The notes under the pieces: model-generated
The model's input: only the letters and a program-made list of their open reading frames with translations
Database searches by the model: none
What the model was told of the DNA's origin: nothing
Translations under genes and position numbers: made by a program
Virus record (IMG/VR): IMGVR_UViG_3300010429_000303
Coordinates: 36,852-100,851 of that record
Strand: one strand, 5' to 3'
DNA from: a virus
Lineage: Duplodnaviria > Caudoviricetes
Length of the DNA: 64,000 bases
Shown: positions 8,771-61,559 of the stretch, piece by piece
Layout of the letters: every line of letters begins with the position of its first letter
Position numbering within the stretch: position 1 is the first letter of the stretch

Positions 8771-9738
8771 TCATTGACCGGTTAAATCTTTCCTTTGATA
8801 TTTCTTTAACTCCAAATGAGGAAGTACTTTCTGGGTTTACCATGAGAGTTCTGCCTATGGTTATTCCATATGATGGAGTAATCAAGGCATTCTATAAGGT
8901 AGGGGATATTGAAGTAGAACTCACAGAAGATACCTGGGATCTGGTAACTGCTGATGGAGGGTATGACTTAGTTCTAAATGGATCTGCTTTTCCTAACTCA
9001 GGTCAGATCATCTTAAGAATATACAGAGAAAATGACTATGGTTTCTATGGTGATTCAACCTATGAAGATGAAGACTATATCCAAATTCTTGGAGGTGATG
9101 GATTGCCACCAGAGTTTACCGACATTTCGTGTTCTTATGAACTCGATGGAGAATATATCCCTATAGATAAAGATAAGGTAACCCATAGTTTTTGTACCTA
9201 CAATGAAGATCTGGGTCGGTATACCTTTAACTCCTTAGCCTTTCATCCTGGGATTGTTCCTGATCCTGAAGAGTATTATAATCTAAAGATTAATACCACC
9301 TGGGAATATCCTATAGAGTTTACCATTAACAACGATTCTACGGTGTCATACTCTCAGGAAGCTAGGGGAAACGTTTTTAACACAATTTGGGATCCTGTTG
9401 AACTAGGAGAGGTGATTGAAGCAGACTTTTCTTTGGAATATCTTTATGGGGAAGGAGATGTGGTCACTTCTAACTCGTTTGCCTATTACGATTTTGATAT
9501 TGGTGTTTTTACTGTATTGGCAGAAGGATCTTATACCTTAACCAACTACGATGAAACATTCCAGGTTACCTATGAATCGTTATTTTCACACCCTAATTCC
9601 TCTTCGGCAATCCCAACTCAAATAATCAGTCAACGAACTGGACCGGCATCCTCTGTGGTCGTTTCTGGTTATCCCTCATTCACTTTAATCTCAGACATGC
9701 AATGGGGTTATGGAGAGTACTATTATGGAGACACCTAA
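8767..9738 (+). CDS. Acidic, beta-rich hypothetical (probable virion) protein
   Basis: 323 aa, AGGAG RBS before GTG, D/E/Y/T-rich. No family recognised. Confidence 0.65.
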   Translation: MIIDRLNLSFDISLTPNEEVLSGFTMRVLPMVIPYDGVIKAFYKVGDIEVELTEDTWDLVTADGGYDLVLNGSAFPNSGQIILRIYRENDYGFYGDSTYEDEDYIQILGGDGLPPEFTDISCSYELDGEYIPIDKDKVTHSFCTYNEDLGRYTFNSLAFHPGIVPDPEEYYNLKINTTWEYPIEFTINNDSTVSYSQEARGNVFNTIWDPVELGEVIEADFSLEYLYGEGDVVTSNSFAYYDFDIGVFTVLAEGSYTLTNYDETFQVTYESLFSHPNSSSAIPTQIISQRTGPASSVVVSGYPSFTLISDMQWGYGEYYYGDT

Positions 9739-10630
9739 GGTTTCGGTAGTGACTATAGCCCATAATCGAGCACACCTAATTGGCCATACGATAGAAAGTG
9801 TTAGATCTCAGACACTAGACGATTTTGAATACATTCTGATTGATGATGCTTCTTCCGATGATACCTTAAAGATCATCGAACGTCATGCAAGTCAAGATTC
9901 TCGAATCAGAGTGTTTAAGAATGAAACTATTCTGGGCCAGGCTATAGGGATAAACCGATACCTTTCAGAAATAAAAGGGAGCTATGTTGCCATGCTAGAT
10001 TCGGATGATATTTCTAGACCAGAACGGTTGGCAAAACAAGTTGAATTTTTGGAATCTAATCCAGACTATGGGGCAGTTGGTTGTACGTTTCAACTTATCG
10101 ATCAGCAAGGTTCAGACATCCGGATTGTCAGATACCCTACTTCCCCTATTTTAGCCAAATGGAATCTATTTTTTAGTTGTTCAATAATGAATTCTGCTTT
10201 GATGGTACGAACAGAGCTTCTTAACCAAGTCGGGGGGTATCGCGATTCATTTAGATTTATCTGTGATTATGAACTGGTAACTAGACTGGCTGAGATTACT
10301 AAGATTAGAAGTTTGTTAGACACCTTAGTTGAGTATCGGATTCACCCAAATCAAATGACCCATGTCTTTAACCCACAACAAATCTTTCAGGCTTCTTTAT
10401 TACGGTGTCAACTAAATTCTAGATGGTTGGGGTTGATTCCTAAACTGCATGAACATCGAGATTTCATTGCTGCATTAGGAGAAAAGAAGAACACTGACCG
10501 AACTCTTATCCCACACCATAAAAGTTGGTTAAAGAAGATGGAAACCTCGTTTATAGAACGGTTTAAGGTAGATGGGGATGATCTAGAATTATTAACCCAA
10601 GATGTTGCCAAAAAATTTGCAAGACTCTAA
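9710..10630 (+). CDS. Family 2 glycosyltransferase
   Basis: PKVSVV...HN....I...IESV..QT..DFEYILIDDASSDDT, YVAMLDSDD...PERL.KQ and CDYEL motifs. Start may be 9725. Confidence 0.95.
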   Translation: MESTIMETPKVSVVTIAHNRAHLIGHTIESVRSQTLDDFEYILIDDASSDDTLKIIERHASQDSRIRVFKNETILGQAIGINRYLSEIKGSYVAMLDSDDISRPERLAKQVEFLESNPDYGAVGCTFQLIDQQGSDIRIVRYPTSPILAKWNLFFSCSIMNSALMVRTELLNQVGGYRDSFRFICDYELVTRLAEITKIRSLLDTLVEYRIHPNQMTHVFNPQQIFQASLLRCQLNSRWLGLIPKLHEHRDFIAALGEKKNTDRTLIPHHKSWLKKMETSFIERFKVDGDDLELLTQDVAKKFARL

Positions 10631-10644
10631 CTCAAGGAACTAAC

Positions 10645-11913
10645 ATGCTTTCGTTCAGGCAGTTCTTTAATAACCTCTCAGAAGCCATTCAACAACTGGT
10701 TAAAGATGACTTAGACCAGATTATCAAATCTCCAGGGGAGACATTAGTTCACTTTTCTAATTCAGAAGAGTTCCCTCCTACTTCAAAGAGTAGGGGAACA
10801 ATGACGGCCTATAATGGTGAGTTTGCGGGCTCTAAGATTGGAAAGTCTATAACCAAAGCTAAGGATGCCTTGTTCTTCTGGTTCTTAAAGGATATCTACA
10901 TTCCCCAAACCAACACTAAAAAAATAGCTATTTCTGGATTGTTTAGCAACCGAACTTACCTCTATCTTGCAGACCTACCAACAAACCAATCAGAAATTTT
11001 GAGAGTTTCTAGATATCAAGAATCTCAATTTGTCCGAGATATCACCAACTTAAAGAACAAGGGTTACGATATCTTGGAAACAAATCTTCCCTTAGAGATT
11101 AAAGATAACCTTTTAGACATCTTAGAATTTGGTGATAACGATCAGTTAAGGTTTGAACGACCACAGAATAAGAGTCCTAATTTTAATGACTTAATGTCTA
11201 GTTTATTTCCTGAGTTTGGCCAGGTTACCTTAGGAGGGCCTAAAGTAACACAACTACCTTCTGCAGTGAACACCACTAAACAGGCTATCTTAATTCTTCT
11301 AGCTGCTAAACAAAATCCAGATATTCAAAAACAGTTGGTCTTCCAGAATAATACTCCCTTTAGTGGAAATTTCATTGAACGATACTCTGAGGTAAAGCTA
11401 AAAGGGGGAGGTATTGATGAGGTAAAACTTTCAGAACTCTTATCTGGGTTCCAATTAGATATTCCTAAGACACTTAAGAATCTGGCTAAACTGTCAACAA
11501 CCAAAAGAACTTCTGAAGGGACCAAGGTTTCCCCAGAAGACTACATCAAAGCCATGAATGCGTTTTTAGTTCACTACAATAAGAAGATAGGGGGACAGTT
11601 TGATATAGACAATCCAGCATGGAAACTATGGTTAACCGTACTATTCTTCTCCTTCGATCAAAATGAATCTTGGGTTTCACTCTGGAAAGAATTAGGTTAT
11701 TCTGTCATCATAGATGATGATCCAAACACTCAAATAGTTCCTGGCTTGGAAAAGATGGTGGTAAACAAGTTAAGTCAATATGGCTCTGAAGCAGAGCGAA
11801 TGCTCACCCGAATGGACAACGAAGGAACTCAGATTGTGGTGTTGGATCCTAAGGTGTTGACAAACATTAGAAGATTTAATCTTTCTGAACTACAACCCCC
11901 AGAAGATGATTAG
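10645..11913 (+). CDS. Hypothetical protein, candidate internal head protein
   Basis: Starts MLSFRQFFNNLSEA, resembling the T4 internal-protein capsid-targeting leader MKTYQEFIAE. AAGGAA RBS. Confidence 0.55.
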   Translation: MLSFRQFFNNLSEAIQQLVKDDLDQIIKSPGETLVHFSNSEEFPPTSKSRGTMTAYNGEFAGSKIGKSITKAKDALFFWFLKDIYIPQTNTKKIAISGLFSNRTYLYLADLPTNQSEILRVSRYQESQFVRDITNLKNKGYDILETNLPLEIKDNLLDILEFGDNDQLRFERPQNKSPNFNDLMSSLFPEFGQVTLGGPKVTQLPSAVNTTKQAILILLAAKQNPDIQKQLVFQNNTPFSGNFIERYSEVKLKGGGIDEVKLSELLSGFQLDIPKTLKNLAKLSTTKRTSEGTKVSPEDYIKAMNAFLVHYNKKIGGQFDIDNPAWKLWLTVLFFSFDQNESWVSLWKELGYSVIIDDDPNTQIVPGLEKMVVNKLSQYGSEAERMLTRMDNEGTQIVVLDPKVLTNIRRFNLSELQPPEDD

Positions 11914-12820
11914 GGAAGAAGAGATTGCAGACCTCTTTAATCTCTTGATGGTAATCAGGATGAACAATCAGAGCAAATCCTATCCCACAATTCAGAACTG
12001 TCCTTAGTTCATCTTCCTCCAACTTTCCCTTTTCTTGAATAGTTATGAATAGTGGGGGAAGTGTAGGGATGTCAAGATCTGAAGTAAGGTAAGGTGGAAT
12101 GACTCTAGTCAAATTTCCCAGCAATCCTCCCCCAGTGATATTTGCCCCTACTTTAATCACTGAGGAGAAAGTCTCTTTAAGTCTCTTAACCAAAGGGGCA
12201 TAGAGGTGTGTGGGTCTGAGAAGATCATAAAGTTCATCCCTAGAGAATGGGTTCTGGTCATGAATTTTCCTTATCAAACTGAACCCATTGGCGTGGGGGC
12301 CAGAAGATTCAATCCCTAAAATCATATCGCCTTCTTGAACCCGGTCAGAGCACCAGAGTTCTGATTTAGCTACTTTTCCCACACCAAAGCCAGCAATGTC
12401 AAACACTCCTCTTTGAATCATGTCTGGAAGTTCTGCTGTTTCTCCCCCAATCAGAGAACAACCACATTGTTCACATGCCGCCTTGACTCCTAAGATCAAT
12501 TCAGAAAGATCAAGATCCCCTATCTTATGGACGGCCAGGTAGTCGAGGAGGAAAAGAGGAAGGGCCCCAGTAGTAATGATATCATTCACCACCATGGCTA
12601 CTAAATCTTGTCCTAGTGTGAAAAGATGGTTAGGAAGGTGGTTCTCTAAAACTAGGATTAGTTTAGAGCCTACCCCATCAGTTGAACTCACCCAAACGTC
12701 GTCTCCTTCTTCAAACAGACTGGCAAACCCCCCATCAGTCACTCCATTCTTCTTAAGAGTTTCAACCCAGGTATCGTTCCTTCCCACAGAAACCCCACAG
12801 TCCTGGTAGCTTAGAGACAT
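11876..12820 (-). CDS. purM: Phosphoribosylformylglycinamidine cyclo-ligase (AIR synthetase)
   Basis: SY...GV, STDGVGSK, GQDLVAM.VND....GA.PLF.LDY.A, LIGGETAE.P, SSGPH.NGFSL.RK, ITGGG and N.GIG motifs. Confidence 0.95.
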   Translation of the reverse strand: MSLSYQDCGVSVGRNDTWVETLKKNGVTDGGFASLFEEGDDVWVSSTDGVGSKLILVLENHLPNHLFTLGQDLVAMVVNDIITTGALPLFLLDYLAVHKIGDLDLSELILGVKAACEQCGCSLIGGETAELPDMIQRGVFDIAGFGVGKVAKSELWCSDRVQEGDMILGIESSGPHANGFSLIRKIHDQNPFSRDELYDLLRPTHLYAPLVKRLKETFSSVIKVGANITGGGLLGNLTRVIPPYLTSDLDIPTLPPLFITIQEKGKLEEDELRTVLNCGIGFALIVHPDYHQEIKEVCNLFFPNHLLGVVVQKD

Positions 12821-14604
12821 TCAATCCTCTCTTCACTTGGATAGTGATGGAATCTATGATGTTCTACTGGAGAGGCTAACAAGACACCCCCTAAAATCTC
12901 TCCTCGAATCTGACGTTGGTAGGAATGAGACATGATGGTAGATTCATGGGGGAATCTAAATACGGGGTCTAAGTAAATCTTTCTGGACCCTTCTTGAGTA
13001 AGAAGAATAGGCCAGTTGCAGTAATGAACTAACCCTAGAGCATACGGGAGTTCTTCAAAGGTTCTAATGGATGAGAACCGGGTAAAGGGAATGAAGCTGG
13101 TATCTAACTTCTCGGGTTGTTCGGGAAACAACTCAGGAAGTAGTTCAGCGGGAACATTACACCAAGCCCAGGCCTTATCATTGTTACCAAAGAATTCAGA
13201 AAAGTTAAGTTTTAAGAAATCCAAGTTCTCTAAGGCTAGAATAGATAAAGATTTTCTAAGTAGACCAGGAATATACCGTTGAAATCCAGACCGACAAGGG
13301 GGAGTGTGTTTACCACAAAGGCCCATATCATCTTCAAAGAAGATCATAGTCTGAAACTCTGGGTGTTTAGCAAAATCTTCAGCTACCCACTGTCTTCCTG
13401 AACAAATCCCTAGATTACCATAAGATTCTACCCGGAAGCCAAACTCCTTAGCAATCTCTAAATTCTCCTTTTTAGCTTCTTCAGAAGTAGAGTTGTCTAA
13501 CAGTGTCCATGAAGGTTTTCCAAAGAATTCTGGGTATGCAGATTTTATAGTTGTTAAAGTGTGTCGTAACTGTTCGGGAAAGTTAAATGTCATACAGTAG
13601 ACCGCTAACGAAGAAATAGGATCTCTCCTGGCTAAAGGTCGTTGAATCTCCATTTTAGGTTCTGGGGGAGATTCAAGTACACTCGTTTCCTCCTTATGGC
13701 CCAATGTGGTGACTACGATATCCTGGGTAAACGGGATCTTAGGTCTGATAGAACTGACATCCACGAATGACCCTACCCCTGTTTTTACTGCTTCACAGAA
13801 GTTAGAGATCATCCCGTATTCTTGAAGCATAAACAGATTGATATCCATGGGGTATCGGTAGCCCAATACAGTAAATAAAGACTCCTCTGTCCCTAAGAAC
13901 CCAGCATGAAGCGTAGAGGCTAGTAGACTGTAATAGAGAGAATTAAACTTCTGAATGGTTTCTTTATTGCCCCCAAACATTCCTCCTCGACAGACAAATT
14001 CTACATTAGGAACTTCACAATACTTATTCAAGGCAGATCGATTAAAGCCGTGAATCTCAGGTCCAGTAGCATAAGGAAAAGCTAGGAACAAGAAAGGATC
14101 CAGGAATGTCTCTAACTTATGAAGAATCTTATCGTGGGAAAAGTAGCCTTTATGAACGGTGTTTGTGATCCCAGCGTCTAACCACAGGAAGTACTCAGTA
14201 TTAAAAGGATTCGTGATAGAGGCATCTGACATCATGAACATCTTAGCCAAGACAAAAGGTAGATAAAGATCTAATTTAGCCTGGGGGGATTCTTCCAACC
14301 AGGAGGCCTGTTTAGCCCACTCAGGTCTCTCTCGAAGGTGCTTTACTAGAGTGGAGAACTCAAACCAGTCTCTAAATTGTTGAGAACTTCGTTCTAGGAT
14401 CTGGGTGTTCTCTTCCTTCCTGGTTTCCTTGATTAGAGGAACTACTTTGTTCTCAGTAAAGATGATCATTGGAAGGTCAGCCGTACTTTCCAATAACTCC
14501 TTAAATTTATCTAGGTAGAATTGAAAGTCCCTACTGAAGGAGGAATCTAATTTATCCCTCCCCATATCATACAACCCGGTAACTAAGGTAATGTTCGGTT
14601 TCAT
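12811..14604 (-). CDS. HtrL/YibB (WlaTC)-family glycosyltransferase-like domain fused to GT-A-like domain
   Basis: TLVTGLYD.GR...R.F.FYL..F, K.F....A...NPFNTEYF.W.DAG, GG.FGG and GTEES.F motifs. C-terminal half has LLDNS and FFEDD GT-A motifs. Confidence 0.75.
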   Translation of the reverse strand: MKPNITLVTGLYDMGRDKLDSSFSRDFQFYLDKFKELLESTADLPMIIFTENKVVPLIKETRKEENTQILERSSQQFRDWFEFSTLVKHLRERPEWAKQASWLEESPQAKLDLYLPFVLAKMFMMSDASITNPFNTEYFLWLDAGITNTVHKGYFSHDKILHKLETFLDPFLFLAFPYATGPEIHGFNRSALNKYCEVPNVEFVCRGGMFGGNKETIQKFNSLYYSLLASTLHAGFLGTEESLFTVLGYRYPMDINLFMLQEYGMISNFCEAVKTGVGSFVDVSSIRPKIPFTQDIVVTTLGHKEETSVLESPPEPKMEIQRPLARRDPISSLAVYCMTFNFPEQLRHTLTTIKSAYPEFFGKPSWTLLDNSTSEEAKKENLEIAKEFGFRVESYGNLGICSGRQWVAEDFAKHPEFQTMIFFEDDMGLCGKHTPPCRSGFQRYIPGLLRKSLSILALENLDFLKLNFSEFFGNNDKAWAWCNVPAELLPELFPEQPEKLDTSFIPFTRFSSIRTFEELPYALGLVHYCNWPILLTQEGSRKIYLDPVFRFPHESTIMSHSYQRQIRGEILGGVLLASPVEHHRFHHYPSEERIECL

Positions 14605-14613: not shown

Positions 14614-15903
14614 TTAAGAAATGGTGTCAATGAGTTTGCCTTCTAAAGGGGAAGGACTCCACCCTTGAGACCTGGAATGTGGCCAAACTACCCAAGTGGT
14701 AGGGAGACATGGCATGTGGAACTCCCTCCATAGGTTTATCCAATCCTTTGTTTCTAACGTTCGATAGAATGAAGAAATCTCAGAATCTACAGCATCCTTT
14801 CTGAATATTTCATTCCCCTGGGCATCCTTAAAGATAACGGCAAAGAAGTCGTAATCTCTTAGGGGAAGTTGAGATTTATGAATGTCAATACAGTGTCTAA
14901 AGATAGGCTCAAATGACTTGTTATATTCATCTTCAGAAGTCCACTGATCATTTGGGTTTGGTGGAGGTTTATGGTCTAAAGTCCACCGTTGTACTGACCT
15001 ATCCTTGAATCTAATTCCAGCAAACTTTTCATATTCGGCCAATGATCTTACTGGACCAAGACCATACCTCCCGAAATCAATGTCATTTTTGATTCCATCC
15101 ATACCAAACAACTTTCTATGACGTTCATGAGACTTCTTGTTCAACTCTACCCAACGGTTATTGTTATCCCAAACCTTTAACCCCTTTCGATAATCCCGGG
15201 TATACTCATGGAATGCAATCTGTTTATTTGGGCAAAACAGGTCATATCCCCAAGTCCAAGACCTCACTGAAAGAGAACTTTCTTCCCCATGAAAGAAGAG
15301 ATTAGGATCATAAGGGACTTCTTTGACATAGGAGCCAGGGGCAAAGACAAAGTGTCCGGAGAAGTACCTTGACAGGAGAGGAGATTTCATCTCTTCTTCA
15401 GTCATAGAGGAGGGGAGAATAAAGAAAGGGGATTCGGGGATGAACCTATCCCAGTCTAACCGCCAACATTCTGGGGCTCGCCCTTCTGGATCATTGAATG
15501 GATTATAGGAGGGTAAATAGGTAGTCAATACTGGCTTGGAGTAACCAGAGGCTTGAAGTTCTTTTATCATCTCAATACAGAGACTATCCCAGTGTTTTAC
15601 AAACCTGTGGTGGGAATCTAATTGGAGATACCAATCTTCATCAGTAAACCTATCTTGAATAGTAGCCCTAGCCCAACACGTCCCTTTAGTTTGGTCATAG
15701 GGAATTTCTAAGATAGTAAATCTGGGATCACTTTTATACTCGTTAAGTTGATCAACCTCAAAAGGTTCTTCAGTTCCATTCTGAAGAAAGATAGTAAGAT
15801 GAAGATTATCAGGATTCTTAGCATTGGTCAAAAGAGACTTTAAGGTAGGGATGAGTTCTGGGTCTCTGAAAGAAGCTATAGAGCAAAAGATTTTGTCAGA
15901 CAT
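14614..15903 (-). CDS. GT60-like polypeptide/Skp1-Hyp alpha-GlcNAc transferase (Pfam GlcNAc family)
   Basis: IF.SIAS.RDPEL..TL..L...A.NP..L, KG.CWAR...Q, YLQLDSH.RF..HWD, LT.Y.P.Y, F.GHF.F, EVPYDP...F.GEE..L..R.WT.GYD and H.Y.R motifs. Confidence 0.85.
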   Translation of the reverse strand: MSDKIFCSIASFRDPELIPTLKSLLTNAKNPDNLHLTIFLQNGTEEPFEVDQLNEYKSDPRFTILEIPYDQTKGTCWARATIQDRFTDEDWYLQLDSHHRFVKHWDSLCIEMIKELQASGYSKPVLTTYLPSYNPFNDPEGRAPECWRLDWDRFIPESPFFILPSSMTEEEMKSPLLSRYFSGHFVFAPGSYVKEVPYDPNLFFHGEESSLSVRSWTWGYDLFCPNKQIAFHEYTRDYRKGLKVWDNNNRWVELNKKSHERHRKLFGMDGIKNDIDFGRYGLGPVRSLAEYEKFAGIRFKDRSVQRWTLDHKPPPNPNDQWTSEDEYNKSFEPIFRHCIDIHKSQLPLRDYDFFAVIFKDAQGNEIFRKDAVDSEISSFYRTLETKDWINLWREFHMPCLPTTWVVWPHSRSQGWSPSPLEGKLIDTIS

Positions 15904-15929: not shown

Positions 15930-15938
15930 CTATTTAGT
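15930..15938 (-). promoter_or_regulatory. Late-promoter motif ACTAAATAG upstream of the GT60-HtrL-purM operon
   Basis: CTATTTAGT on the + strand, about 27 nt upstream of the ATG at 15903, with an AGGAG RBS between them. Same 9-mer as at 2035, 2057 and 56452. Confidence 0.7.
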
Positions 15939-53344: not shown

Positions 53345-53848
53345 ATGAAATTAAACTTAGGTTGTGGTTATAATAAGAAAGACGGCTATGTTAATGTAGA
53401 TAAAGATGAAGGTTGTTCTCCAGACCTGTGTTTTGACATCACCAGAGCCGACTGGCCAGTTGACACGTCTGTTATTGAAGAAGTACTGGCTGAACATATC
53501 CTTGAACATCTTGAAGGTACAGAACCTTATCTCACTTTCTGGAAAGAGCTGTACCGGGTATGTCAGCATGGGGCAGAGATTAGAATAGAAGTCCCCCATT
53601 GGAGACATGATACCTTCTTCCACGATCCCACTCATACCAGACCTATTACCCCGGTGGGTATTGCTATGTTCGATCAAGAAAGGAACTTTCAAGATTTGAT
53701 GAGCAAAGGCCGAGAAACTAAGCTAGGGTTAATTTGTCAGATAGATATAGAACTTAAAGGGGTCAACTATATATATGACAACCTGTCTGGGACTCCAGAG
53801 GTATGCCAATATTTGGCCAAGGTCGTTAAACCCGCTAGGTACAAGTGA
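53345..53848 (+). CDS. Class I SAM-dependent methyltransferase
   Basis: KLNLGCG.....GYVNVD, H.LEHL, ELYRV...GA...I.VP and DPTH motifs. Confidence 0.88.
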   Translation: MKLNLGCGYNKKDGYVNVDKDEGCSPDLCFDITRADWPVDTSVIEEVLAEHILEHLEGTEPYLTFWKELYRVCQHGAEIRIEVPHWRHDTFFHDPTHTRPITPVGIAMFDQERNFQDLMSKGRETKLGLICQIDIELKGVNYIYDNLSGTPEVCQYLAKVVKPARYK

Positions 53849-53854: not shown

Positions 53855-54649
53855 ATGAAAACCTACCACTTTCTTATTGGTCTGCCTAGATCTGGTTCAA
53901 CCGTACTTTCCTCCTTGTTGAATCAGCATCCCGATGTCTATGTAACCCCTACTTCTCCTTTATTAGACCTCCTAATAGCAGTTCAAGATAAGTGGCATAC
54001 CTGTCCCGCGGTGTTAGCCAATCCATTCCCCGAACAACTTACCAATATTATCCAGGCTATGATCGAATCTGCCTGGAGTCATAGACCAGAACCCATTATT
54101 ATAGATAGATGTAGGGGATGGGCAAAGAACCTCCCTGCTGCCTACCTCCTGTTTAAGAAACAGATAAAGTGTATTATGACAGTTCGGGATCTTCCCTCGA
54201 TAATGGCTTCTTGGCATACTGTGATGGCCAACAATCCAGGAAACTACATGGATATAGAACTGGCTAAGAAGAATCTTCCTGTAACTCGGGAGAGTCGGGT
54301 GATGGGAATGTGGCATAACATGGTAAAGGATTGTATGGATGGAGTACGATGGGCAAAATGGGATGGTGGTGAAGCACTACTACCCGTAGAGTATGACGCC
54401 TTTATCAAAGATCCAGAACCCATCTTAGCTAATATCACTAAATTCTTAGGTCTATCTGATTATAAGTTTGATATCAATAACATCGAAAACACCTATGAAG
54501 ATGATGACCTTAAAGCTTGGGGGTTATCGGGATTACATTCGATTAGACCACGGTTAGAAAAAACAGCTAAGGATCCCAAAGAACTCTTAGGAGAACGTCT
54601 CTTTGAAACCTTTGTCACTCTAGAACAACAGTTTGTTTCTAAAGGTTGA
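53855..54649 (+). CDS. Sulfotransferase
   Basis: 5'-PSB loop GLPRSGST.L..LLNQHP, K.I..VRD...I.AS and V.Y......P...L..I..FL motifs. Confidence 0.9.
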   Translation: MKTYHFLIGLPRSGSTVLSSLLNQHPDVYVTPTSPLLDLLIAVQDKWHTCPAVLANPFPEQLTNIIQAMIESAWSHRPEPIIIDRCRGWAKNLPAAYLLFKKQIKCIMTVRDLPSIMASWHTVMANNPGNYMDIELAKKNLPVTRESRVMGMWHNMVKDCMDGVRWAKWDGGEALLPVEYDAFIKDPEPILANITKFLGLSDYKFDINNIENTYEDDDLKAWGLSGLHSIRPRLEKTAKDPKELLGERLFETFVTLEQQFVSKG

Positions 54650-56449
54650 TTGAACTTCATGCAAAAAACACTCCTAAATCTGGTAAAAAAAGCCCTTGAT
54701 AATGGTGGGTCAATTCATCCCCTACTCATTGATCCCAAGGAGACTAATGGCACTGGCTTGATGAACCCCTCTATCTTTATTGATGGGGATGTTATCAGGT
54801 GTGTGGTTAGACATGTCAACTACACCTTATTCCATTCTGAGGGAAAGAAGTTTCATCACTACTATGGTCCACTCCAGTACATTCACCCAGAAGATGATTG
54901 TACCTTAACCACTAAGAACTTTCTTCTTGAACTGGATGAAAATCTAAATCCTATTTCATGTGATTGGATCGATACATCCAACTTAGACGTAAAGCCTATC
55001 TGGGAGTTCGTTGGTCTTGAAGATGCAAGGCTGTTTAGGTGGGAGGGAAAACTCTACATCTCTGGAGTACGAAGAGACACTACCACTAACGGGGTAGGTC
55101 GAATGGAGCTTAGTGAAATCCAAGCAAAGACTAAGGTGAAGGAGATTTCAAGAACCAGACTCCCTGCCCCAGGGTCTGATGCTTCTTACTGTGAAAAGAA
55201 TTGGATGCCGATCTTGGATAAGCCTTACCACTATGTAAAGTGGTGTGATCCGACAGAGGTAGTAAAGGTAGATCCAGAAACTAAAACTTCTGAGACCGTA
55301 CTACTTAGGGAGAATACTCTACCCCATCATGGAGACTTTCGGGGTAGTTCTCAAGTCATTCCTTGGAACGGTTACTATATAGCCCTTATTCATGAAGTAC
55401 GGTTGTTTAAGTCAGAGTTGGGGCGAAAAGATGGAAAATACTTTCATAGATTCCTCCTGTGGGATAAAGACTTCAATCTTATTGATATGTCTGAACTGTT
55501 TGATTTCATGGAAGGGGAGATTGAATTCTGTTGTGGGTTAGCCTTTCATAATGGCCATTTCTTGATCTCCTTTGGTTTCCAGGACAATGCAGCTTATATC
55601 TTGAAAGCCCCAGAAGAATTTGTAAAATCATTATTACCTTCAATCCCAAAGAAAAAGCCTATCCCTGTTCTTGGTGTCCCTATTGTCAATGGATTTCATT
55701 GTCTTGAACGGTTAGTAGCCTCGGTAGACTACCCTGTGTCTGAGTTGGTCATTATCAATAATAACGGTCGTGGAGAGTTGGATAAGGACCTAGAAGAACT
55801 CAAGAAGAAACCCCATCCCTTTATCAGAAAGATTCATGTCTGCACTCCCCCAGGAAATATCGGTTGTGCAGGAGCTTGGAATCTCATTATTAAGTCTAGA
55901 CCCCTCTCTCCTTACTGGGTAATTACCAATCACGATATCGCGTTTACCCCAGGATTTCTAGAGGCTTTGGCTGGCTATTCAGAAGATCCTGAGATAGGAT
56001 TGGTTCATGCCCATGAAGGACAATGGGGATTAGGTTCCTGGGAGATCTTTTCCATTAAGGATTCTACCATTCAACGGTATGGTCTCTTCGATGAGAATCT
56101 TTATCCCGCCTATGAAGAAGATATGGATTACTTTATGCGGATGGTCCATGATGAGAATCCCCCGAAACGAATCCTTTCTGTAGGATTGCCATTCTTCCAT
56201 GGAGATACCCTCTGTACCAATAAATGTTACGATACCACTGCTTCTCAGACTAAGAAGTGTGATATTGATCTTCATGCTAGAATCAATCAATGTCAGGTAA
56301 TTAACCAGTCTGAATATATGGATCTAAAGTGGGGAAAGGCTTGGCGGTGGGTAAGTCCTACTCCCTTTCCTTTCAACAATCCAGCCATTCCTAGATCCTT
56401 TACTGATTATAATCTAGAATTCATCAGAAAGAAACATTTGGGGTTTTAG
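54650..56449 (+). CDS. Five-blade propeller glycosidase-like domain fused to a GT2-like domain
   Basis: NPSIF, GLEDARLF, EKNWMP, RGSSQ and IEFCCG in the N-terminal part. SVDYP....IINN, N.G.A.AWN, NHDI.F and GLFDEN.YPAY.ED.DY in the C-terminal part. Start may be ATG 54659. Confidence 0.75.
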   Translation: MNFMQKTLLNLVKKALDNGGSIHPLLIDPKETNGTGLMNPSIFIDGDVIRCVVRHVNYTLFHSEGKKFHHYYGPLQYIHPEDDCTLTTKNFLLELDENLNPISCDWIDTSNLDVKPIWEFVGLEDARLFRWEGKLYISGVRRDTTTNGVGRMELSEIQAKTKVKEISRTRLPAPGSDASYCEKNWMPILDKPYHYVKWCDPTEVVKVDPETKTSETVLLRENTLPHHGDFRGSSQVIPWNGYYIALIHEVRLFKSELGRKDGKYFHRFLLWDKDFNLIDMSELFDFMEGEIEFCCGLAFHNGHFLISFGFQDNAAYILKAPEEFVKSLLPSIPKKKPIPVLGVPIVNGFHCLERLVASVDYPVSELVIINNNGRGELDKDLEELKKKPHPFIRKIHVCTPPGNIGCAGAWNLIIKSRPLSPYWVITNHDIAFTPGFLEALAGYSEDPEIGLVHAHEGQWGLGSWEIFSIKDSTIQRYGLFDENLYPAYEEDMDYFMRMVHDENPPKRILSVGLPFFHGDTLCTNKCYDTTASQTKKCDIDLHARINQCQVINQSEYMDLKWGKAWRWVSPTPFPFNNPAIPRSFTDYNLEFIRKKHLGF

Positions 56450-56451
56450 CC

Positions 56452-56460
56452 ACTAAATAG
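56452..56460 (+). promoter_or_regulatory. Late-promoter motif ACTAAATAG upstream of collagen fibre 2
   Basis: Exact 9-mer in the 52-nt intergenic gap before the ATG at 56502. Confidence 0.7.
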
Positions 56461-56501
56461 GATAAGTTCAATTTCAAAATAATTCACAAAAAGGTAGTCA
56501 A

Positions 56502-58553
56502 ATGAGTATTCAGGGAACACAGGGAATTCAGGGATTTCTAGGTATTCAGGGGGCTATTGGTATTCAAGGACCAAGGGGGTTGCAAGGATTTTTTGGTACT
56601 CAGGGTCCATTGGGGATTCAAGGCATTCAAGGAATTATAGGACCTATTGGTATTCAAGGTCCTTCTGATGGTGTACAAGGAATTCAAGGAATAACTGGTT
56701 CGCAAGGTGCTCAAGGCATAACAGGGAATCAAGGTATTCAAGGAACAACAGGTGCCGGAATTCAAGGATCTATTGGTATTCAAGGTCCCTCTGATGGGGT
56801 ACAAGGTATTCAAGGAATTACTGGCTCTCAGGGAACTCAAGGAATAACCGGGAATCAAGGTATTCAGGGAATTCAGGGGCTAATTGGTTCCCAAGGAATT
56901 CAGGGGCTAATTGGTTCCCAAGGAATTCAGGGTATAACTGGAAACCAAGGCATTCAAGGAATAACTGGAGTAGGTACCCAGGGAGCTACTGGTATTCAAG
57001 GTCCTGCAGATGGGCCTCAAGGTATTCAAGGTATAACTGGAAACCAAGGAGTTCAGGGGGTTCATGGGGTAACTGGATCTCAAGGCCCAACTGGACATCA
57101 GGGGATTCAAGGAATTACTGGCTCTCAGGGAACTCAAGGAATAATCGGCAATCAAGGAATTCAGGGGCTAATTGGTTCCCAAGGAATTCAAGGGATAACT
57201 GGAAACCAAGGTATTCAAGGAATAACTGGGTCACAAGGTATTCAAGGAATAACTGGAGTAGGAACACAAGGGGCTACCGGCATTCAAGGTCCTGCAGATG
57301 GGCCACAAGGCATTCAAGGTATCCAAGGAGATACAGGGATTCAAGGAGTTTTTGGAACCCAGGGATATATGGGTATTCAGGGAAATGTAGGGTCTAGAGG
57401 AATTCAAGGCATTCAAGGAGTACTCGGTACACAAGGAAGCCAGGGGATAACAGGGGTTCAAGGTGTTCAGGGACTTACTGGAAATCAAGGCATTCAAGGC
57501 TCTGGTTCTGTTGGTGCACAAGGTATTCAAGGGATAACTGGATTCCAAGGAGTTCAAGGTATTCAAGGTTTAACCGGGGCTGGAACTCAAGGCACTACTG
57601 GATCCCAAGGGGTTAAAGGTATTCAAGGCATAACCGGAGCTGGTACCCAAGGTATTCAAGGTTTAACCGGGGCTGGAACTCAAGGCACTACTGGATCCCA
57701 AGGGGTTCAAGGTATTCAAGGCATAACCGGAGCTGGTACCCAAGGCATTCAAGGTATTACAGGGATTCAAGGTCCAGCAGATGGGCCACAAGGAACCACT
57801 GGTTCTCAAGGTGTTCAAGGGATAACTGGAAACCAAGGTATTCAAGGAATAACTGGGTCACAAGGTATTCAAGGAATAACTGGAGTAGGAACACAAGGGG
57901 CTACCGGTTCTCAAGGTATTCAAGGAATAACTGGAGCAGGGACTCAAGGAACTACTGGTTCTCAAGGTATTCAAGGAATAACTGGATTAGGGACTCAAGG
58001 AACTACAGGACCACAAGGTATTCAAGGGATAACTGGATTAGGGACTCAAGGAGTTCAAGGTATTTCTGGAAGCTCTACTATTGTAGACACTCCTTCAGAC
58101 GGAGAAACCACTAGCGGTATATCATCAAATTGGGCATTCGACCATGCCGCAAGTACGACAGTACATGGATTAAATGCACTGGTTTTAAAAGATTATACGG
58201 AATATCTCTATTCCCCCGGTGCAATAACAGACAGTTCATTGACTATAGATACTGCCAATGGTAATGTACAACGATTTACTATAAACCCAACATCAAGTCC
58301 TTGTGAAATAATACTACCTTCGGATCCAGGATCTACCTGTAAATCATTAGTATTGATATTAGAAAACTCTACAGGTAAGGCTCATTCATGGGCTACTTCC
58401 CCAGCCATCAAGTGGGTATCAGAGACAGACAGTGATACAGTTCCAACACCTGCTGCTGTTACGTTTGTTTCGGTTTATAGCTTTATTTGGGATGATAATG
58501 ATGCAGGTACTGGAAGATGGCTTGGATGGTTAAGTGGTAAGGAGACAAGTTAA
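56502..58553 (+). CDS. Collagen-like (Gly-X-Gln/Thr) tail fibre 2
   Basis: About 520 aa of G-X-Y with internal 27- to 90-bp duplications. C-terminal GISSNWAFDH motif and ID..NGNVQ...W...P...W.G fibre-tip domain. Confidence 0.9.
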   Translation: MSIQGTQGIQGFLGIQGAIGIQGPRGLQGFFGTQGPLGIQGIQGIIGPIGIQGPSDGVQGIQGITGSQGAQGITGNQGIQGTTGAGIQGSIGIQGPSDGVQGIQGITGSQGTQGITGNQGIQGIQGLIGSQGIQGLIGSQGIQGITGNQGIQGITGVGTQGATGIQGPADGPQGIQGITGNQGVQGVHGVTGSQGPTGHQGIQGITGSQGTQGIIGNQGIQGLIGSQGIQGITGNQGIQGITGSQGIQGITGVGTQGATGIQGPADGPQGIQGIQGDTGIQGVFGTQGYMGIQGNVGSRGIQGIQGVLGTQGSQGITGVQGVQGLTGNQGIQGSGSVGAQGIQGITGFQGVQGIQGLTGAGTQGTTGSQGVKGIQGITGAGTQGIQGLTGAGTQGTTGSQGVQGIQGITGAGTQGIQGITGIQGPADGPQGTTGSQGVQGITGNQGIQGITGSQGIQGITGVGTQGATGSQGIQGITGAGTQGTTGSQGIQGITGLGTQGTTGPQGIQGITGLGTQGVQGISGSSTIVDTPSDGETTSGISSNWAFDHAASTTVHGLNALVLKDYTEYLYSPGAITDSSLTIDTANGNVQRFTINPTSSPCEIILPSDPGSTCKSLVLILENSTGKAHSWATSPAIKWVSETDSDTVPTPAAVTFVSVYSFIWDDNDAGTGRWLGWLSGKETS

Positions 58554-59242: not shown

Positions 59243-59254
59243 GTCGGAGTTATA

Positions 59255-59758
59255 ATGAACTATTATCTTATTGATCCAAATAATCTTTCTATTATTTCAG
59301 GGCCGCATGCCCATAACTCTACAGAGCTCAAAAAGATTACCCGGTGTGGTAATCCAGAACTACTAAATCTTTTAGCTTACAATCTAGTCCCTGAAGTTAT
59401 TCCTACTATTTCAGAAAATCAGAAATATGGATCACAGTTAGTATCACAAACTGAAGTATCATATCAGATAGTAGATAAAACTAAAGAAGATCTAGAAGGT
59501 GAAGAAACTGTTACATTAACCATTCTAAGAAATGAGCTAAAGTGTACTCCAAGACAGATTCGTATGCTACTTTCTCAACAAAACCTTCTTACAAAAGTGG
59601 AATCTTATATAAATAACATGGATGAAATTACTAAGATTGAGTGGGAATACGCTCAAGAAATCAAACGTAATCATCCTGTTATCTTATCTTTATCTGTTAT
59701 TTTAGGATTTACTGAAACCCAGACTGACGACTTGTTCAAACTAGCCATGAATCTCTAA
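59255..59758 (+). CDS. Tail-fibre assembly/chaperone-like protein (C-terminal domain shared with 61572-62033)
   Basis: TPRQ.R..L....LL..VE and EWEYA..I.R..P....L...LG....Q.DDLF..A motifs. Confidence 0.65.
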   Translation: MNYYLIDPNNLSIISGPHAHNSTELKKITRCGNPELLNLLAYNLVPEVIPTISENQKYGSQLVSQTEVSYQIVDKTKEDLEGEETVTLTILRNELKCTPRQIRMLLSQQNLLTKVESYINNMDEITKIEWEYAQEIKRNHPVILSLSVILGFTETQTDDLFKLAMNL

Positions 59759-59821
59759 GCTACATAAAACTCTGGCTAATTGTTCATTCTGAGGCATCTG
59801 ATTAAACTAGAAGAAGTGACT

Positions 59822-60355
59822 ATGACCCTAAGTCAAGAATTCATTCAATCCTGTCTTACCCCTTCTGATATCAATGAACATATCCCTAAACTCTATGATT
59901 TGGCCAAAACCTGTAACTCGGTTACTGAGTTTGGAGTTAGAGATGGAGTGTCTACCAGAGCTTTCCTGTTTGCTGGAGTCAAGCTAAGATCTTATGATCT
60001 GTATCTGGACCCTAAGGTTTCTGTCCTATTTGCTGAGGTTGCTAAAGGTGGAATTGATGTGTCCTACCTACAAGGGAACACCTTGGAGATAGAGATTGAA
60101 CCAACTGATCTCCTCTTCATTGACTCCAAACATACCTATTCCCAATTAAAAGCTGAATTGGCTAGGCATTCAAACAAGGTCAGAAGGTTCATTGTTCTGC
60201 ATGACATGGAGAGTTTTGGTCGGGGTGGGGAAGATGGTTCTTCTCCAGGATTAGTTCAAGCAGTAGAAGAGTTCATTGAAAGATCCAAGGGATGGAAGAT
60301 CAAAGAGAAGTTTTCCAACAACAACGGGTTATGGGTGCTTGAATCTCATGTCTGA
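59822..60355 (+). CDS. Methyltransf_24-like O-methyltransferase
   Basis: SDINEH.P.L, EFGVR.G.ST, DLLFID..HTY.QL..EL..H, I.LHD and NNNGL motifs. ATG 59822 preferred over TTG 59780. Confidence 0.85.
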   Translation: MTLSQEFIQSCLTPSDINEHIPKLYDLAKTCNSVTEFGVRDGVSTRAFLFAGVKLRSYDLYLDPKVSVLFAEVAKGGIDVSYLQGNTLEIEIEPTDLLFIDSKHTYSQLKAELARHSNKVRRFIVLHDMESFGRGGEDGSSPGLVQAVEEFIERSKGWKIKEKFSNNNGLWVLESHV

Positions 60356-61559
60356 TTTAACCAGAAGTCTCCAAGATTACCTCCTTAATCCTTCTGATCC
60401 TAGGGCTAACTTCGATCTAGGGGTAGCCTATGAAGGGTTAAATCAGACGGCTTCTTCTTCTTCATTCTTCCTTAGAGCTGCCGAGAAAACCTTAGATAAA
60501 GATCTCCAGTATTGTGCGTTAATCAGGAACGCACGGTGTTTCGAGAAACAAGGCAAGCGTGATCTTACGGTAAAGACGTTGATCCAAAGGGCTATAGCCC
60601 TTTGTCCTACTAGACCAGAAGGATACTTCTTTCTCTCTAGGCTCTATGAGAGACAGAAGAACTATCATGATTGCTACTGTATGGCGTGTCTGGGCTTACA
60701 GAATGCTAAGGTCTTTGATCCAAGAATCCCAGAATATAACGGAGAATATCTCCTACTCTTTCAGAAGGCTATCGGGGCTTGGTGGGTTGGATTGACCGAA
60801 GAATCTAGAGATATACTGTTTGATCTTCAGATGAATTATAGTTTACCCCCTGAGTATCATAGTTTGGTTGCTAATAATCTGCAAACCTTAGGGTATCCAA
60901 AGCGAAAACTGGTCTACCAGAATTCATTCCTTGACCACCTGAGACATAAGTTTCCTGGGGTAGAAACTATTAGAAATAACTACTCACAGGTGTTTCAAGA
61001 TATGTTCGTGCTTACTGTGCTTCAAGGAAAGAGGGATGGGGTGTATTTGGAGATTGGGGCTTCAGATCCTTTCTATAACAATAATACTGCGTTGTTAGAA
61101 ACCAACTTTGGATGGACTGGACTCTCTTTAGAGATAGATCCAAAGGAGGTTAAGAAGTTTAAGGAACAAAGAAAGAATCCAATCTTGGAGTTAGATGCCA
61201 CTAAGGTTGATTTCAAGAAACTTCTTGAACATCTTCCAGAAACCTTAGATTATCTTCAGGTAGATTGTGATCCCGATGAAGTATCATTCTCAATCCTTTG
61301 TGCCCTACTAAATAGTGGTAAACGGTTTAGAGTACTTACCTTTGAACATGATGCTTATGTAGGTGGGACTGTTCGAGAACGTTCTAGAACTCTCCTTGAA
61401 GACCACGGATATAGCCTCAGAGTCCCCAATGTAGCCTTTAATGAGAAGAATGCCTTTGAAGATTGGTGGGTACTTCCAGAGGAAGTTGGCCCAGAATTCA
61501 AAGAGTGTTCAGAAAAACCAATAAATTTTGCCATGGATGTGCTGTTCACCCAACACTGA
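60348..61559 (+). CDS. TPR plus FkbM-like (Methyltransf_21) methyltransferase
   Basis: TPR-like N-terminal region (FFLRAAE, P.RPE.YF.LS). YSQ.FQD.FV, G.YLEIGA......NNT.LLE..FGW.G, DYLQVD, FEHD and FEDWW motifs. ATG 60348 is coupled to the upstream stop. Confidence 0.85.
   Translation: MSDLTRSLQDYLLNPSDPRANFDLGVAYEGLNQTASSSSFFLRAAEKTLDKDLQYCALIRNARCFEKQGKRDLTVKTLIQRAIALCPTRPEGYFFLSRLYERQKNYHDCYCMACLGLQNAKVFDPRIPEYNGEYLLLFQKAIGAWWVGLTEESRDILFDLQMNYSLPPEYHSLVANNLQTLGYPKRKLVYQNSFLDHLRHKFPGVETIRNNYSQVFQDMFVLTVLQGKRDGVYLEIGASDPFYNNNTALLETNFGWTGLSLEIDPKEVKKFKEQRKNPILELDATKVDFKKLLEHLPETLDYLQVDCDPDEVSFSILCALLNSGKRFRVLTFEHDAYVGGTVRERSRTLLEDHGYSLRVPNVAFNEKNAFEDWWVLPEEVGPEFKECSEKPINFAMDVLFTQH

Follow-up and report, generated by a model that had tools for sequence, protein, structure and literature searches.

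The genes that surround the glycan-related enzymes of this uncultured T4-like phage encode baseplate and fibre proteins, and the locus raises the question of whether these enzymes form one pathway and what they glycosylate. The window, the whole 64,000-nt stretch analysed here, is part of a 100.8-kb contig. Nine glycan-related genes had been listed in the original prediction. Pfam searches upheld the families of five of them, namely two GT2-like proteins (PF00535), an HtrL-type double GT-A protein (HtrL_YibB), a GT60-like protein (PF11397), and a sulfotransferase (Sulfotransfer_3), while the calls of "GT9", "propeller", "FkbM" (PF05050), and "Methyltransf_24" (below its cut-off) are retained as leads only. 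No transmembrane segment was found in any of the nine enzymes. Based on family assignments, predicted folds, gene linkage, and phyletic patterns, we lean towards the presence of two distinct glycan modules, A and B, within this baseplate and fibre region.

The candidate initiator of module A is a GT60-like glycosyltransferase (14614..15903, minus strand) matching PF11397 ('GlcNAc', 3.2e-65) and phrog_24687 (1.6e-136). When its AF2 model (pLDDT 93.8) was compared with the PDB by Foldseek, the matches listed (ranks 1-50) were all polypeptide GalNAc-transferases, with a best value of 2e-12. The D96-S97-H98 motif is conserved, and D96-x-H98 is invariant over 40 phage and bacterial homologues. As judged from the modelled fold, the enzyme closely resembles the initiators of mucin-type sugar chains. 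PF11397 is shared with the protist polypeptide alpha-GlcNAc-transferases of CAZy family GT60 (mucin-type initiators of Dictyostelium and T. cruzi), whose role has been described (PMC8724618). The solved structures nearest to its GT-A fold are those of animal GT27 ppGalNAc-transferases, with which the DxH-type motif is conserved. As in these systems, the phage gene is paired with Thr/Ser/Pro-rich mucin-like tracts, and the enzyme, in which no transmembrane segment was found, is soluble like the cytosolic Gnt1, whose acceptor is Skp1. However, it is prokaryotic/viral, has neither a Golgi anchor nor a ricin lectin domain, and carries a conserved, beta-rich and Trp-rich C-terminal domain of ~100 aa; its sugar and acceptor are putative. 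The literature searched treats GT60 as a eukaryotic family.

The candidate extender of module A is a tandem GT-A protein (12811..14604, minus strand). Its N-terminal part matches HtrL_YibB over aa 4-256 (1.7e-10, Pfam), followed by a disordered linker (aa 289-326) and a GT-A domain with an invariant E424-D425-D426, and the AlphaFold model contains two GT-A domains. The best Foldseek matches were LARGE1, the K4CP chondroitin polymerase, mimivirus R699, LH3, and ColGalT1. LARGE1 lengthens an O-glycan carried by the mucin domain of alpha-dystroglycan. The tandem GT-A architecture is common to LARGE1, K4CP, and the phage protein, but differences in domain orientation keep the TM-scores low (0.23-0.28), and HtrL_YibB, the family of the N-terminal domain, is uncharacterised. 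A polymerase activity of the phage protein could be posited purely by analogy. The GT60-like and double GT-A genes occurred together in 63 of 80 viral loci, in 44 of 80 bacterial loci, and in all four cultured GT60-positive phages (XacN1, Xoo-sp13, and the Stenotrophomonas phages CM1 and RAS14).

The last gene of this minus-strand unit is purM (AIR synthase; 11876..12820, PF00586/PF02769, phrog_1207), a metabolic passenger with no glycan role. It is missing from L004, an 89%-identical relative, and is sited elsewhere in the complete relative G007. Likewise, no homologue of the accessory GT2 gene (9710..10630, plus strand, PF00535 5.6e-31) was found in L004, the nearest relative, though the flanking genes are kept there. 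Judged from gene content, both GT2 and purM are subject to insertion or deletion among close relatives. A promoter-like motif, ACTAAATA(G) (15931..15938, minus strand), lies 28 nt upstream of the GT60-like start, after a hairpin and ahead of an AGGAG ribosome-binding site. Seven of the 15 CTAAATA sites in the contig sit 8-60 nt upstream of an ORF start, and the genes behind such sites comprise gp48-like, wedge, and collagen-fibre genes as well as two replication-module genes. The motif is not conserved upstream of the GT60-like gene in G007. In the source window, the GT60 unit, co-transcribed with purM, is located 8 kb from the PT-tract genes and on the opposite strand.

These PT-tract genes encode the candidate acceptors. 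At least seven P/T/S tracts had been predicted, and this count held: six tracts (at least 14 of 20 residues P/T/S) were found in three VrlC-like giant proteins, and a short TPTPTPS was found in a fourth ORF. Paralogue 1 (24003..29825, plus strand, phrog_358/877) has a tract at aa 1217-1292; in the G007 homologue, the tract at this place is 380 aa long. The C-terminal piece of this paralogue (29832..30890, plus strand), located behind an in-frame stop, contains the TPTPTPS (aa 161-167). Paralogue 2 (30902..38317, plus strand), which is homologous to the cyanophage VrlC/'structural protein', has tracts at aa 1116-1179, 1347-1420, and 1531-1572, and paralogue 3 (38322..45890, plus strand) at aa 1490-1523 and 2079-2103. 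Across two GT60-positive relatives (the source phage and G007), all six VrlC-like giants have PT tracts at ~aa 1100-1600, and one of the six has the additional tract at aa 2079-2103. None of the five VrlC homologues from GT60-negative cultured phages (Syn19, S-RIM2, pf16, RSP15, and phiM9) has a PT tract, the GT60-positive side of this comparison (G000 and G007) being a single lineage. PT tracts also occur as ordinary flexible linkers. No prolyl hydroxylase was found in the contig.

Beyond these relatives, GT60 genes are linked to PT-repeat genes in both phages and bacteria. Among 80 viral loci, a PT-tract protein was encoded directly upstream (position -1) of the GT60 gene in 34 of 75 (45%), compared with 3 of 299 genes (1%) at positions +1 to +4 (Fisher p 6e-24); in bacteria, PT-tract ORFs made up 44 of 416 within three genes and 0 of 262 at four to six genes (p 4e-10), and the Fisher p-values overstate independence because many viral loci are related. 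After clustering at 70% identity, the viral linkage is seen in only 4-5 of 11 lineages, and in 39 of the 80 viral loci none of the three genes preceding GT60 is a PT ORF. At least 16 sequence clusters are represented among the upstream PT proteins, which accompany at least four GT60 lineages at 70% identity. The bacterial loci come from taxa including Gemmatimonadota, Bacteroidota, Planctomycetota, Verrucomicrobiota, Acidobacteriota, and Pseudomonadota.

The closest cultured parallel is the Xanthomonas jumbo phage XacN1, which has homologues of both module A genes (40% and 34% identical), in the order baseplate wedge, 3313-aa PT-tract protein, GT9, HtrL-fusion, carbamoyltransferase, and GT60-like. 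Its virions contain at least two glycoproteins stained by periodic acid-Schiff (PAS; PMC5852040). The stain identifies neither the glycoproteins themselves nor the enzymes that modify them. XacN1 differs from the present phage in being a Xanthomonadaceae jumbo phage and in having the carbamoyltransferase and two extra ORFs between the GT60-like and HtrL-fusion genes, and its authors linked the enzymes neither to PT tracts nor to GT60. Virion O-glycosylation by phage glycosyltransferases encoded near structural genes is known from mycobacteriophages (Freeman et al. 2023, as cited in PMC12619734 and PMC12801897). According to these citing papers, Ser/Thr-rich parts of virion proteins are likewise modified in the host cytoplasm, the targets being the C-termini of capsid and tail-tube subunits in siphoviruses of Actinobacteria. 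In contrast, the system proposed here would act on internal PT stalks of giant baseplate proteins in a T4-like myovirus and would use another initiator family.

Since bacterial GT60 homologues adjoin bacterial PT-repeat protein genes, this enzyme class would act on cellular PT proteins, and module A could be directed at PT-rich proteins of the host (adhesins, pilins, or receptors), for example to mask a receptor. We regard this as very improbable, given that phage loci bring their own PT proteins directly upstream, with LamG, RCC1, and P-domain fibre-type modules, that the VrlC giants of the source phage and G007 themselves carry PT tracts, and that XacN1 virions hold glycoproteins. An even more doubtful target is DNA, whose hydroxymethylated bases would be glycosylated as by the GTs of T-even and TET/5mYOX-linked phages. 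Glycosylation of 5hmC by phage GT-A enzymes is documented (bioRxiv 10.1101/2023.12.21.572611), and a DNA polymerase gene (family B) lies within 10 kb of GT60 in ~25 of the 80 viral loci, as does a DNA polymerase gene in XacN1. However, the GT-A enzymes known to act on DNA resemble JGT/TarP and have another motif set, no thymidylate-synthase-type hydroxymethylase was found in the 100.8-kb contig (about half of the genome), the structural matches listed for the GT60-like enzyme are exclusively peptide O-GalNAc-transferases, and adjacency to PT genes has no DNA-based explanation. Priming of Thr/Ser in the P/T/S linkers, as originally predicted, is supported by the fold, the linkage to PT genes, the phyletic pattern, and XacN1; the same proposal for the collagens is unsupported, a collagen ORF being located near GT60 in only two of the 80 loci.

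Module B (50439-56449, perhaps to 61559; plus strand) begins with an RCC1 beta-propeller gene (50439..51872, PF25390 1.5e-150), which is also its conserved first gene in relatives. The next protein (51893..53341) has an N-terminal TPR (Pfam) and a GT-B-like domain; its C-terminal half had no Pfam match, and an ESM Atlas search (score 0.96, TM 0.94) led to clusters with PF01075 in 11-26% of their members, making GT9-like a lead only. Homologues of this protein (59-62%) adjoin RCC1 genes in five viral contigs, and a 29% homologue is present in cyanophage S-SRM01. A small class-I methyltransferase-like protein (53345..53848), again a lead only, has an N-terminal LNLGCG motif and matches phrog_6636 (1.2e-8) but no Pfam family; its 70% homologues lie directly 3' of the TPR-GT gene in L225-L227. 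The sulfotransferase (53855..54649, PF13469 5.3e-16, N-terminal GLPRSGST) has homologues in cyanophages S-SRM01, S-SKS1, and S-SCSM1. The following gene (54650..56449) encodes a GT2-like C-terminal half (PF00535 1.1e-5, above the gathering score; phrog_29879 2.8e-23) and an unassigned N-terminal domain for which neither a propeller nor any other match was found. Further downstream are a possible, weak Methyltransf_24-like protein (59822..60355, 21 bits against a 26.3-bit cut-off) and a protein (60348..61559) with a TPR-like N-terminus (matches below cut-off) and a C-terminus for which PF05050 was not found by HMM, FkbM-like being an Atlas lead (0.89-0.90) only.

The two Thr-rich collagens of the original prediction were recovered as collagen-like tail fibres on the plus strand, at 48754..50430 (GIQ/GTQ/GIT triplets) and 56502..58553 (with a ACTAAATAG motif upstream at 56452). 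They lie on either side of the 50439-56449 genes of module B and have 120 and 137 G-X-Y triplets, respectively, with Thr at 10-12% of residues and Pro scarce. Bacillus anthracis BclA and the mimivirus collagen are Thr-rich or hydroxylysine collagen-like surface fibres that are O-glycosylated, partly with methylated sugars. In the present phage, however, no homologous enzymes were identified, and the tie between module B and the collagens is one of gene adjacency.

The original prediction joined all nine genes into a single pathway, in which GT60 primes PT linkers and collagens and the other enzymes extend and cap the chain. Consistent with this, the nine genes fall within a single structural region of 52 kb, and every product is soluble. 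GT9-like domains are fused to methyltransferase or sulfotransferase domains in other phages, which links these three activities to each other. However, G007 has GT60, the HtrL-fusion, and the PT-tract giants, while the 51893-61559 enzymes, the collagen fibres, and the RCC1 gene are all missing. Conversely, S-SRM01 and five viral contigs (L225-L229) have the cassette of RCC1, TPR-GT, methyltransferase, sulfotransferase, and collagen-fibre genes without GT60 or PT tracts. With GT2 and purM also absent from L004 and collagen ORFs rare near GT60, a single pathway is improbable, and module B is, as gene content indicates, a separately inherited cassette. Because the modules are separable and collagens rarely lie near GT60, methyl or sulfate capping of a GT60-primed glycan is conjecture.

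Module B could alternatively remodel the host surface (LPS, exopolysaccharide, or S-layer glycan), a role also conceivable for the other enzymes, and thereby block superinfection or alter grazing. The RCC1, TPR-GT, sulfotransferase, and LamG homologues of S-SRM01 stand in the same order behind a tail-fibre gene, and sulfotransferase, TPR-GT, and RCC1 homologues occur in cyanophage clusters with a nucleotide-sugar epimerase. Such 'LPS/cell-wall modification' clusters (S-SRM01, S-SKS1, S-SCSM1, and P-SSM2 type) are read as putative host-surface genes, cell-surface modification being their usual interpretation (PMC12801897). Moreover, GT2 matches include GtrB-like O-antigen conversion PHROGs, and the sulfotransferase is weakly NoeE-like. 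We consider host-surface remodelling possible, though unlikely: the enzymes have no transmembrane segment or signal peptide, no flippase, polymerase, or Und-P transferase accompanies them, and module B always lies between RCC1 and collagen-fibre genes, on the strand of the late genes. Unlike in the cyanomyovirus clusters, a collagen-like fibre gene closes the cassette here and in L228 and L229 (41% homologue of 56502-58553). In the case of module A, both the predicted fold and the linkage to PT genes indicate a protein acceptor.

Under the two-module reading, we infer the acceptor, donor sugar, order of steps, and timing as follows. Module B would probably build or tailor a methylated and/or sulfated glycan, with fibre or RCC1 proteins as the first guess for its acceptor and a host envelope glycan as a close second. 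In the cytoplasm of the infected cell, the GT60-like enzyme of module A would place a HexNAc-type sugar on Thr/Ser of the PT/S tracts in the three VrlC-like giants. The donor would be a host nucleotide sugar; as predicted, nucleotide-sugar synthesis genes are missing, with neither an epimerase (PF01370) nor a nucleotidyltransferase (PF00483) found in the entire 100.8-kb contig. The double GT-A enzyme, with an architecture like that of the bifunctional chain builders LARGE1 and K4CP, would then extend the chain by one or two sugars or by a repeating disaccharide. Because the initiator resembles those of mucin-type chains and adjoins PT-repeat genes across phages and bacteria, the phage probably decorates its own giant baseplate proteins with sugars along their Thr-Pro stalks, which would make these virion stalks stiff, hydrated, and protease-resistant.

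The gene at 14614–15903 on the minus strand encodes a protein that matched the PF11397/GT60 glycosyltransferase family with 221 bits against a gathering cut-off of 21 bits (E = 3.2e-65), and the same result was obtained on the contig. When the protein was aligned with 39 homologues from phages and bacteria (40 sequences in all), D96 and H98 were the same in every sequence and S97 and H99 in nearly all; a DxH-type motif is the metal-binding motif of this family. The AlphaFold (AF2) model of the protein had a pLDDT of 93.8 and a pTM of 0.90. When the model was searched against the PDB with Foldseek, ranks 1–50 of the matches listed were polypeptide GalNAc-transferases throughout, with E-values down to 2e-12 and with complexes with mucin peptides among them. 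These transferases are the starters of mucin-type O-glycans, and the phage protein is predicted to have a GT-A fold akin to that of the GT27 polypeptide GalNAc-transferases. However, it has a conserved, beta-rich and Trp-rich C-terminal domain where they have a ricin lectin domain. None of the PDB sequences matched the GT60-like protein in phmmer and profile searches; matches came from the fold search only. The protist counterparts are GT60 enzymes that start mucin-type chains with GlcNAc (PMC8724618). Our literature searches turned up no relevant account of GT60 or PF11397 proteins in phages.

Hydroxyproline is unlikely to be the acceptor, because no P4H-type oxygenase was found in the 100.8-kb contig, which covers ~56% of the genome. 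The genes for proteins with Thr/Pro/Ser repeats (PT tracts) that adjoin the GT60-like gene in phages and bacteria point indirectly to Ser/Thr of a polypeptide as the site on which this candidate enzyme would act. Phage glycosyltransferases may also modify DNA, but we consider this unlikely here. The fold neighbours of the predicted GT60-like structure are peptide transferases, whereas the known phage DNA-modifying GT-A enzymes are JGT/TarP-like. Furthermore, of the enzymes that could supply hydroxymethyl-pyrimidine (ThyA-like hydroxymethylases and TET/5mYOX), the ThyA-like family PF00303 was the one searched for, and it was absent from the 100.8-kb contig (~56% of the genome).

The neighbouring gene 12811–14604 on the same strand, which together with the GT60-like gene we denote as module A, encodes a protein whose predicted model comprises two GT-A (Rossmann-like) domains separated by a disordered linker (aa 289–326). 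An invariant E424-D425-D426 marks its C-terminal domain; in the N-terminal HtrL domain, W141 and D143 are invariant and there is no clear DxD. The top structural matches were bifunctional or tandem GT-A enzymes (LARGE1, the K4CP chondroitin polymerase, mimivirus R699, LH3, and ColGalT1); as in LARGE1 and K4CP, two GT-A domains are predicted in a single chain. The two genes occurred together in 63 of 80 viral loci, where they always shared a strand, as well as in 44 of 80 bacterial loci and in all four cultured phages that carry the GT60-like gene.

The GT60-like family is present in at least 570 viral contigs and at least 570 bacterial species representatives. We oriented 80 viral loci on the GT60-like gene, with windows of ±10 kb. 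The original prediction proposed to test across phage genomes whether GT60 co-occurs with PT-linker VrlC or collagen genes. In 34/75 loci, the gene directly upstream (position −1) encoded a protein containing an extended (T/S)P repeat tract. The rate was 23%, 19%, and 17% at positions −2, −3, and −4, and 0–1% at +1 to +4, with 8% overall (position −1 vs +1 to +4, Fisher p ~6e-24, a value that overstates independence as many of the loci are related). The upstream PT proteins formed at least 16 sequence clusters and contained LamG, RCC1, or P-domain modules, the same kinds of domains as in the fibre-region genes of the window. When the enzymes were grouped by single linkage at 70% identity, the pairing was kept in 4–5 of the 11 lineages with usable flanks, and the signal is not from one clade. 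These PT proteins would be modified by the phage for its own use; glycosylation of PT proteins of the host is a less economical explanation than such self-modification.

In bacterial loci, PT-tract ORFs made up 44/416 of the genes within three genes of the enzyme vs 0/262 at four to six genes, counts in which some high-GC matches may be frame artefacts while the low-GC Bacteroidota cases are clean. The pairing was found in Gemmatimonadota, Bacteroidota, Planctomycetota, Verrucomicrobiota, Acidobacteriota, and Pseudomonadota. Shorter GT60-like homologues without an HtrL partner were present in Burkholderia, Paraburkholderia, Cupriavidus, and Achromobacter (loci L144, L147, L153, L154, and L162–L167). 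Genes of this Burkholderia group lie directly after type VI secretion (T6SS) baseplate genes (TssE, TssF, TssG, TssA, ImpE) and a fimbrial protein gene, and before an Rhs protein gene. We set this T6SS baseplate link aside, as it involves a single lineage with shorter proteins and no HtrL partner.

The contig is 100,851 bp long (the window being 36852–100851), was rated ~56% complete by CheckV, and has a GC content of 35–46%. Upstream of the window lies a T4-type replication module with a clamp loader, a split family-B polymerase, UvsX-like, gp41-like, and gp46/47-like proteins, RNR, gp32, and three TnpB copies. The gp44-like clamp loader (L084:6858-8234, L084 and L085 being upstream segments of this contig) carries an intein splicing domain. 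The three 405-aa TnpB/IS605 OrfB-type (Cas12f-like) genes are dispersed in the module (L084:2297-3514, L085:6023-7240, and L085:14302-15519), two being assigned by Pfam and the third by its same length and a common BLAST match. Within the window, genes for gp48-, gp5-, gp6-, and wedge-type baseplate proteins are followed by genes for three giant VrlC-like paralogues, for two collagen-like fibres, and for proteins of the RCC1 and LamG kinds. This phage is far from cultured phages: neither gene block had a megablast match among them, and its gp6-like protein shares ~30% identity with those of Pelagibacter phage HTVC008M and cyanomyoviruses.

We compared the window with two relatives. The first, L004, has a GT60-like protein 89% identical to that of the window and shares the baseplate context, with GT2 and purM missing. 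The second, G007 (IMGVR_UViG_3300015607_004593), is syntenic at 35–63% identity; this contig of 221,970 bp was rated complete and has a GC content of 28.6%. In G007 a 203-aa gene lies between the GT60-like and double GT-A genes, which remain together, and all four of its VrlC-like proteins have PT tracts positioned as in the window phage; one paralogue (126651–132470) contains an uninterrupted P/T/S tract of ~380 residues (aa 1227–1607). Five cultured phages without the enzyme (Syn19, S-RIM2, pf16, RSP15, and phiM9) have VrlC homologues that carry no PT tract, with P/T/S reaching at most 10–13 in any 20 residues. Because the tracts are present in the enzyme-positive G007 and window phage and absent from these five phages, the enzyme pair and the PT insertion go together, although the positive cases belong to a single lineage. 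The RNR-based relatives G003, G006, and G015 were rejected as negative controls, being too distant and lacking the structural module. A single in-frame stop (29826–29831) separates paralogue 1 of the window (24003–29825) from its end piece (29832–30890). This split may be old and not an error, since the counterpart piece in G007 is likewise a separate ORF (588 aa, 132496–134262).

The cultured phage XacN1 has the same module layout as the window. Two baseplate wedge genes are followed by genes for a 3313-aa PT-tract protein, two small ORFs, a GT9, and one ORF, and then on the opposite strand by the double GT-A gene and, after two further ORFs, by genes for a carbamoyltransferase and the GT60-like enzyme. 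A NodU/CmcH-type carbamoyltransferase gene lies between the GT60-like and double GT-A genes in XacN1 and in Jiulongibacter sediminis (L096:9241-10812); because of this position, O-carbamoylated glycans are suggested for some versions of module A. Yoshikawa et al. described at least two periodic acid-Schiff (PAS)-positive glycoprotein bands in XacN1 virions and, without identifying the bands, proposed that they are the work of transferases encoded by the phage itself (PMC5852040). Virion O-glycosylation systems of the mycobacteriophage type are marked by glycans shown on virion proteins and dependent on phage glycosyltransferases; for module A, the nearest counterpart is these PAS-positive bands of XacN1.

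A ACTAAATAG motif, resembling the T4 late promoter TATAAATA, was found 28 nt upstream of the GT60-like start, with a hairpin before it and an AGGAG site after it. Copies of this motif also stand upstream of the gp48-like gene, a wedge gene, the gene for collagen fibre 2, and gene 1488–2015, as well as two replication-module genes. In the contig, 7/15 CTAAATA sites lie 8–60 nt upstream of an ORF start. The ACTAAATA 8-mer was observed 7 times vs 4.9 expected, so that its count is not enriched and its position alone is non-random. The ACTAAATAG motif was not conserved upstream of the GT60-like gene in G007. Taken together, the motif lends weak support to the possibility that the GT60-like gene is co-expressed with structural genes. 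Two ACTAAATAG motifs stand back to back on opposite strands at 2036–2064, between the divergent genes 1488–2015 (minus strand) and 2094–3200 (plus strand), in what looks like a bidirectional promoter region. The family-B DNA polymerase (L084:9114-12627) consists of two ORFs separated by a minus-strand 214-aa gene with its own ACTAAATAG motif.

Five of the nine glycan-enzyme assignments in the original prediction proved solid, namely GT2, the HtrL-type fusion, GT60/PF11397, the sulfotransferase, and the GT2-like half of gene 54650, as did the TPR half of gene 51893; the remainder are leads only. The sulfotransferase (gene 53855) matched the sulfotransferase family (PF13469/PF00685) with 60 bits against a cut-off of 27 bits and has an N-terminal GLPRSGST, which corresponds to the PAPS-binding loop. 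The GT9-like half of 51893–53341 is a feature and structure lead from the ESM Atlas alone, 11–26% of members in the matched clusters carrying PF01075, and its isolated domain had no Pfam match to PF01075 at E up to 5. The 167-aa methyltransferase-like protein of gene 53345 was assigned by one PHROG match and a GxGxG-type motif, and the Methyltransf_24 call (59822–60355) scored below the cut-off. For 60348–61559, no HMM match to FkbM (PF05050) was found, the lead being an Atlas match of 0.89–0.90. Neither a Pfam rescan nor a PDB sequence search returned anything for the "propeller" half of 54650, and scanning the unassigned domains in isolation against Pfam again (E up to 5) yielded no further assignment. 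PDB sequence searches with the HtrL fusion, 54650, and the C-terminal half of 60348 also gave no matches. Hydrophobic segments were absent from all nine enzymes, so all are predicted to be soluble. On the acceptor and donor side, the P/T/S tracts (six long and one short, TPTPTPS) and the two Thr-rich collagens, both of which are Pro-poor, were as described in the original prediction; it noted no nucleotide-sugar synthesis genes in the window, and no epimerase and no nucleotidyltransferase was found in the 100.8-kb contig.

The genes between the two collagen-like fibres (48754–50430 and 56502–58553) constitute module B (50439–56449, perhaps extending to 61559). In cyanophage S-SRM01, which has no GT60-like gene, three RCC1 genes come after a tail-fibre gene, and with them lie genes for a TPR protein that shares 29% identity with 51893, a sulfotransferase of 31% identity, a glycosyltransferase, a sugar epimerase, and a protein of the LamG kind. 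Five viral contigs (L225–L229), none of which has PT tracts or GT60, carry RCC1 genes followed by a TPR-GT of 59–62% identity. In L225–L227 a methyltransferase (70%) directly follows the TPR-GT; in L228 and L229 it is followed by a variable run of 210–380-aa proteins including a sulfotransferase (55%), with a collagen-like fibre (41%) last. G007 had no homologues of window genes 48754–58553 and 59255–61559 except a LamG-type match. Judged by gene content, module B is a unit distinct from module A. The GT9-like, methyltransferase, and sulfotransferase activities probably serve one pathway, because proteins of other phages join the GT9-like domain to a methyltransferase or a sulfotransferase domain. 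The acceptor of module B may be the fibres, which is favoured by the RCC1 and collagen-fibre genes that constantly bracket it, or the host surface, which is favoured by the cyanophage literature (PMC12801897); remodelling of the host surface by module B and GT2 is a real option. Across L225–L229 and the window (53345–56449), the enzymes between the TPR-GT and the collagen fibre differ by contig, with runs of unrelated 210–380-aa ORFs. This interval has the pattern of a putative swappable glycan-tailoring cassette.

The original prediction joined all nine genes into a single pathway, with collagens among the acceptors and methyl and sulfate groups as caps. This was not supported, as G007 has module A without module B, and S-SRM01 and L225–L229 have module B without GT60. 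The observation itself is real, and the core idea, priming of PT tracts by the GT60-like enzyme, is the best-supported reading for module A. We consider it a serious possibility, though somewhat short of probable, that module A represents an undescribed and widespread mucin-type protein O-glycosylation system of prokaryotes and phages. A soluble GT60-like initiator and a LARGE1-like double GT-A enzyme would build a possibly repeating glycan on the Thr-Pro stalks of phage appendage and bacterial surface proteins, and the module would move among phages and a wide range of bacterial phyla. To our knowledge, mucin-type initiation by GT60/GT27 enzymes is regarded as a eukaryotic trait, and we know of virion glycosylation shown in phages only for actinobacteriophages. 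Since XacN1 is cultured and has both genes, the question is directly testable. If module A does glycosylate Thr-Pro stalks, a large and mostly uncultured set of phages from water and soil, together with bacteria from many phyla, would make mucin-like glycoproteins in the cytoplasm, with effects on virion stability, adsorption, grazing, and immune recognition, and with a bearing on the origin of the eukaryotic enzymes.
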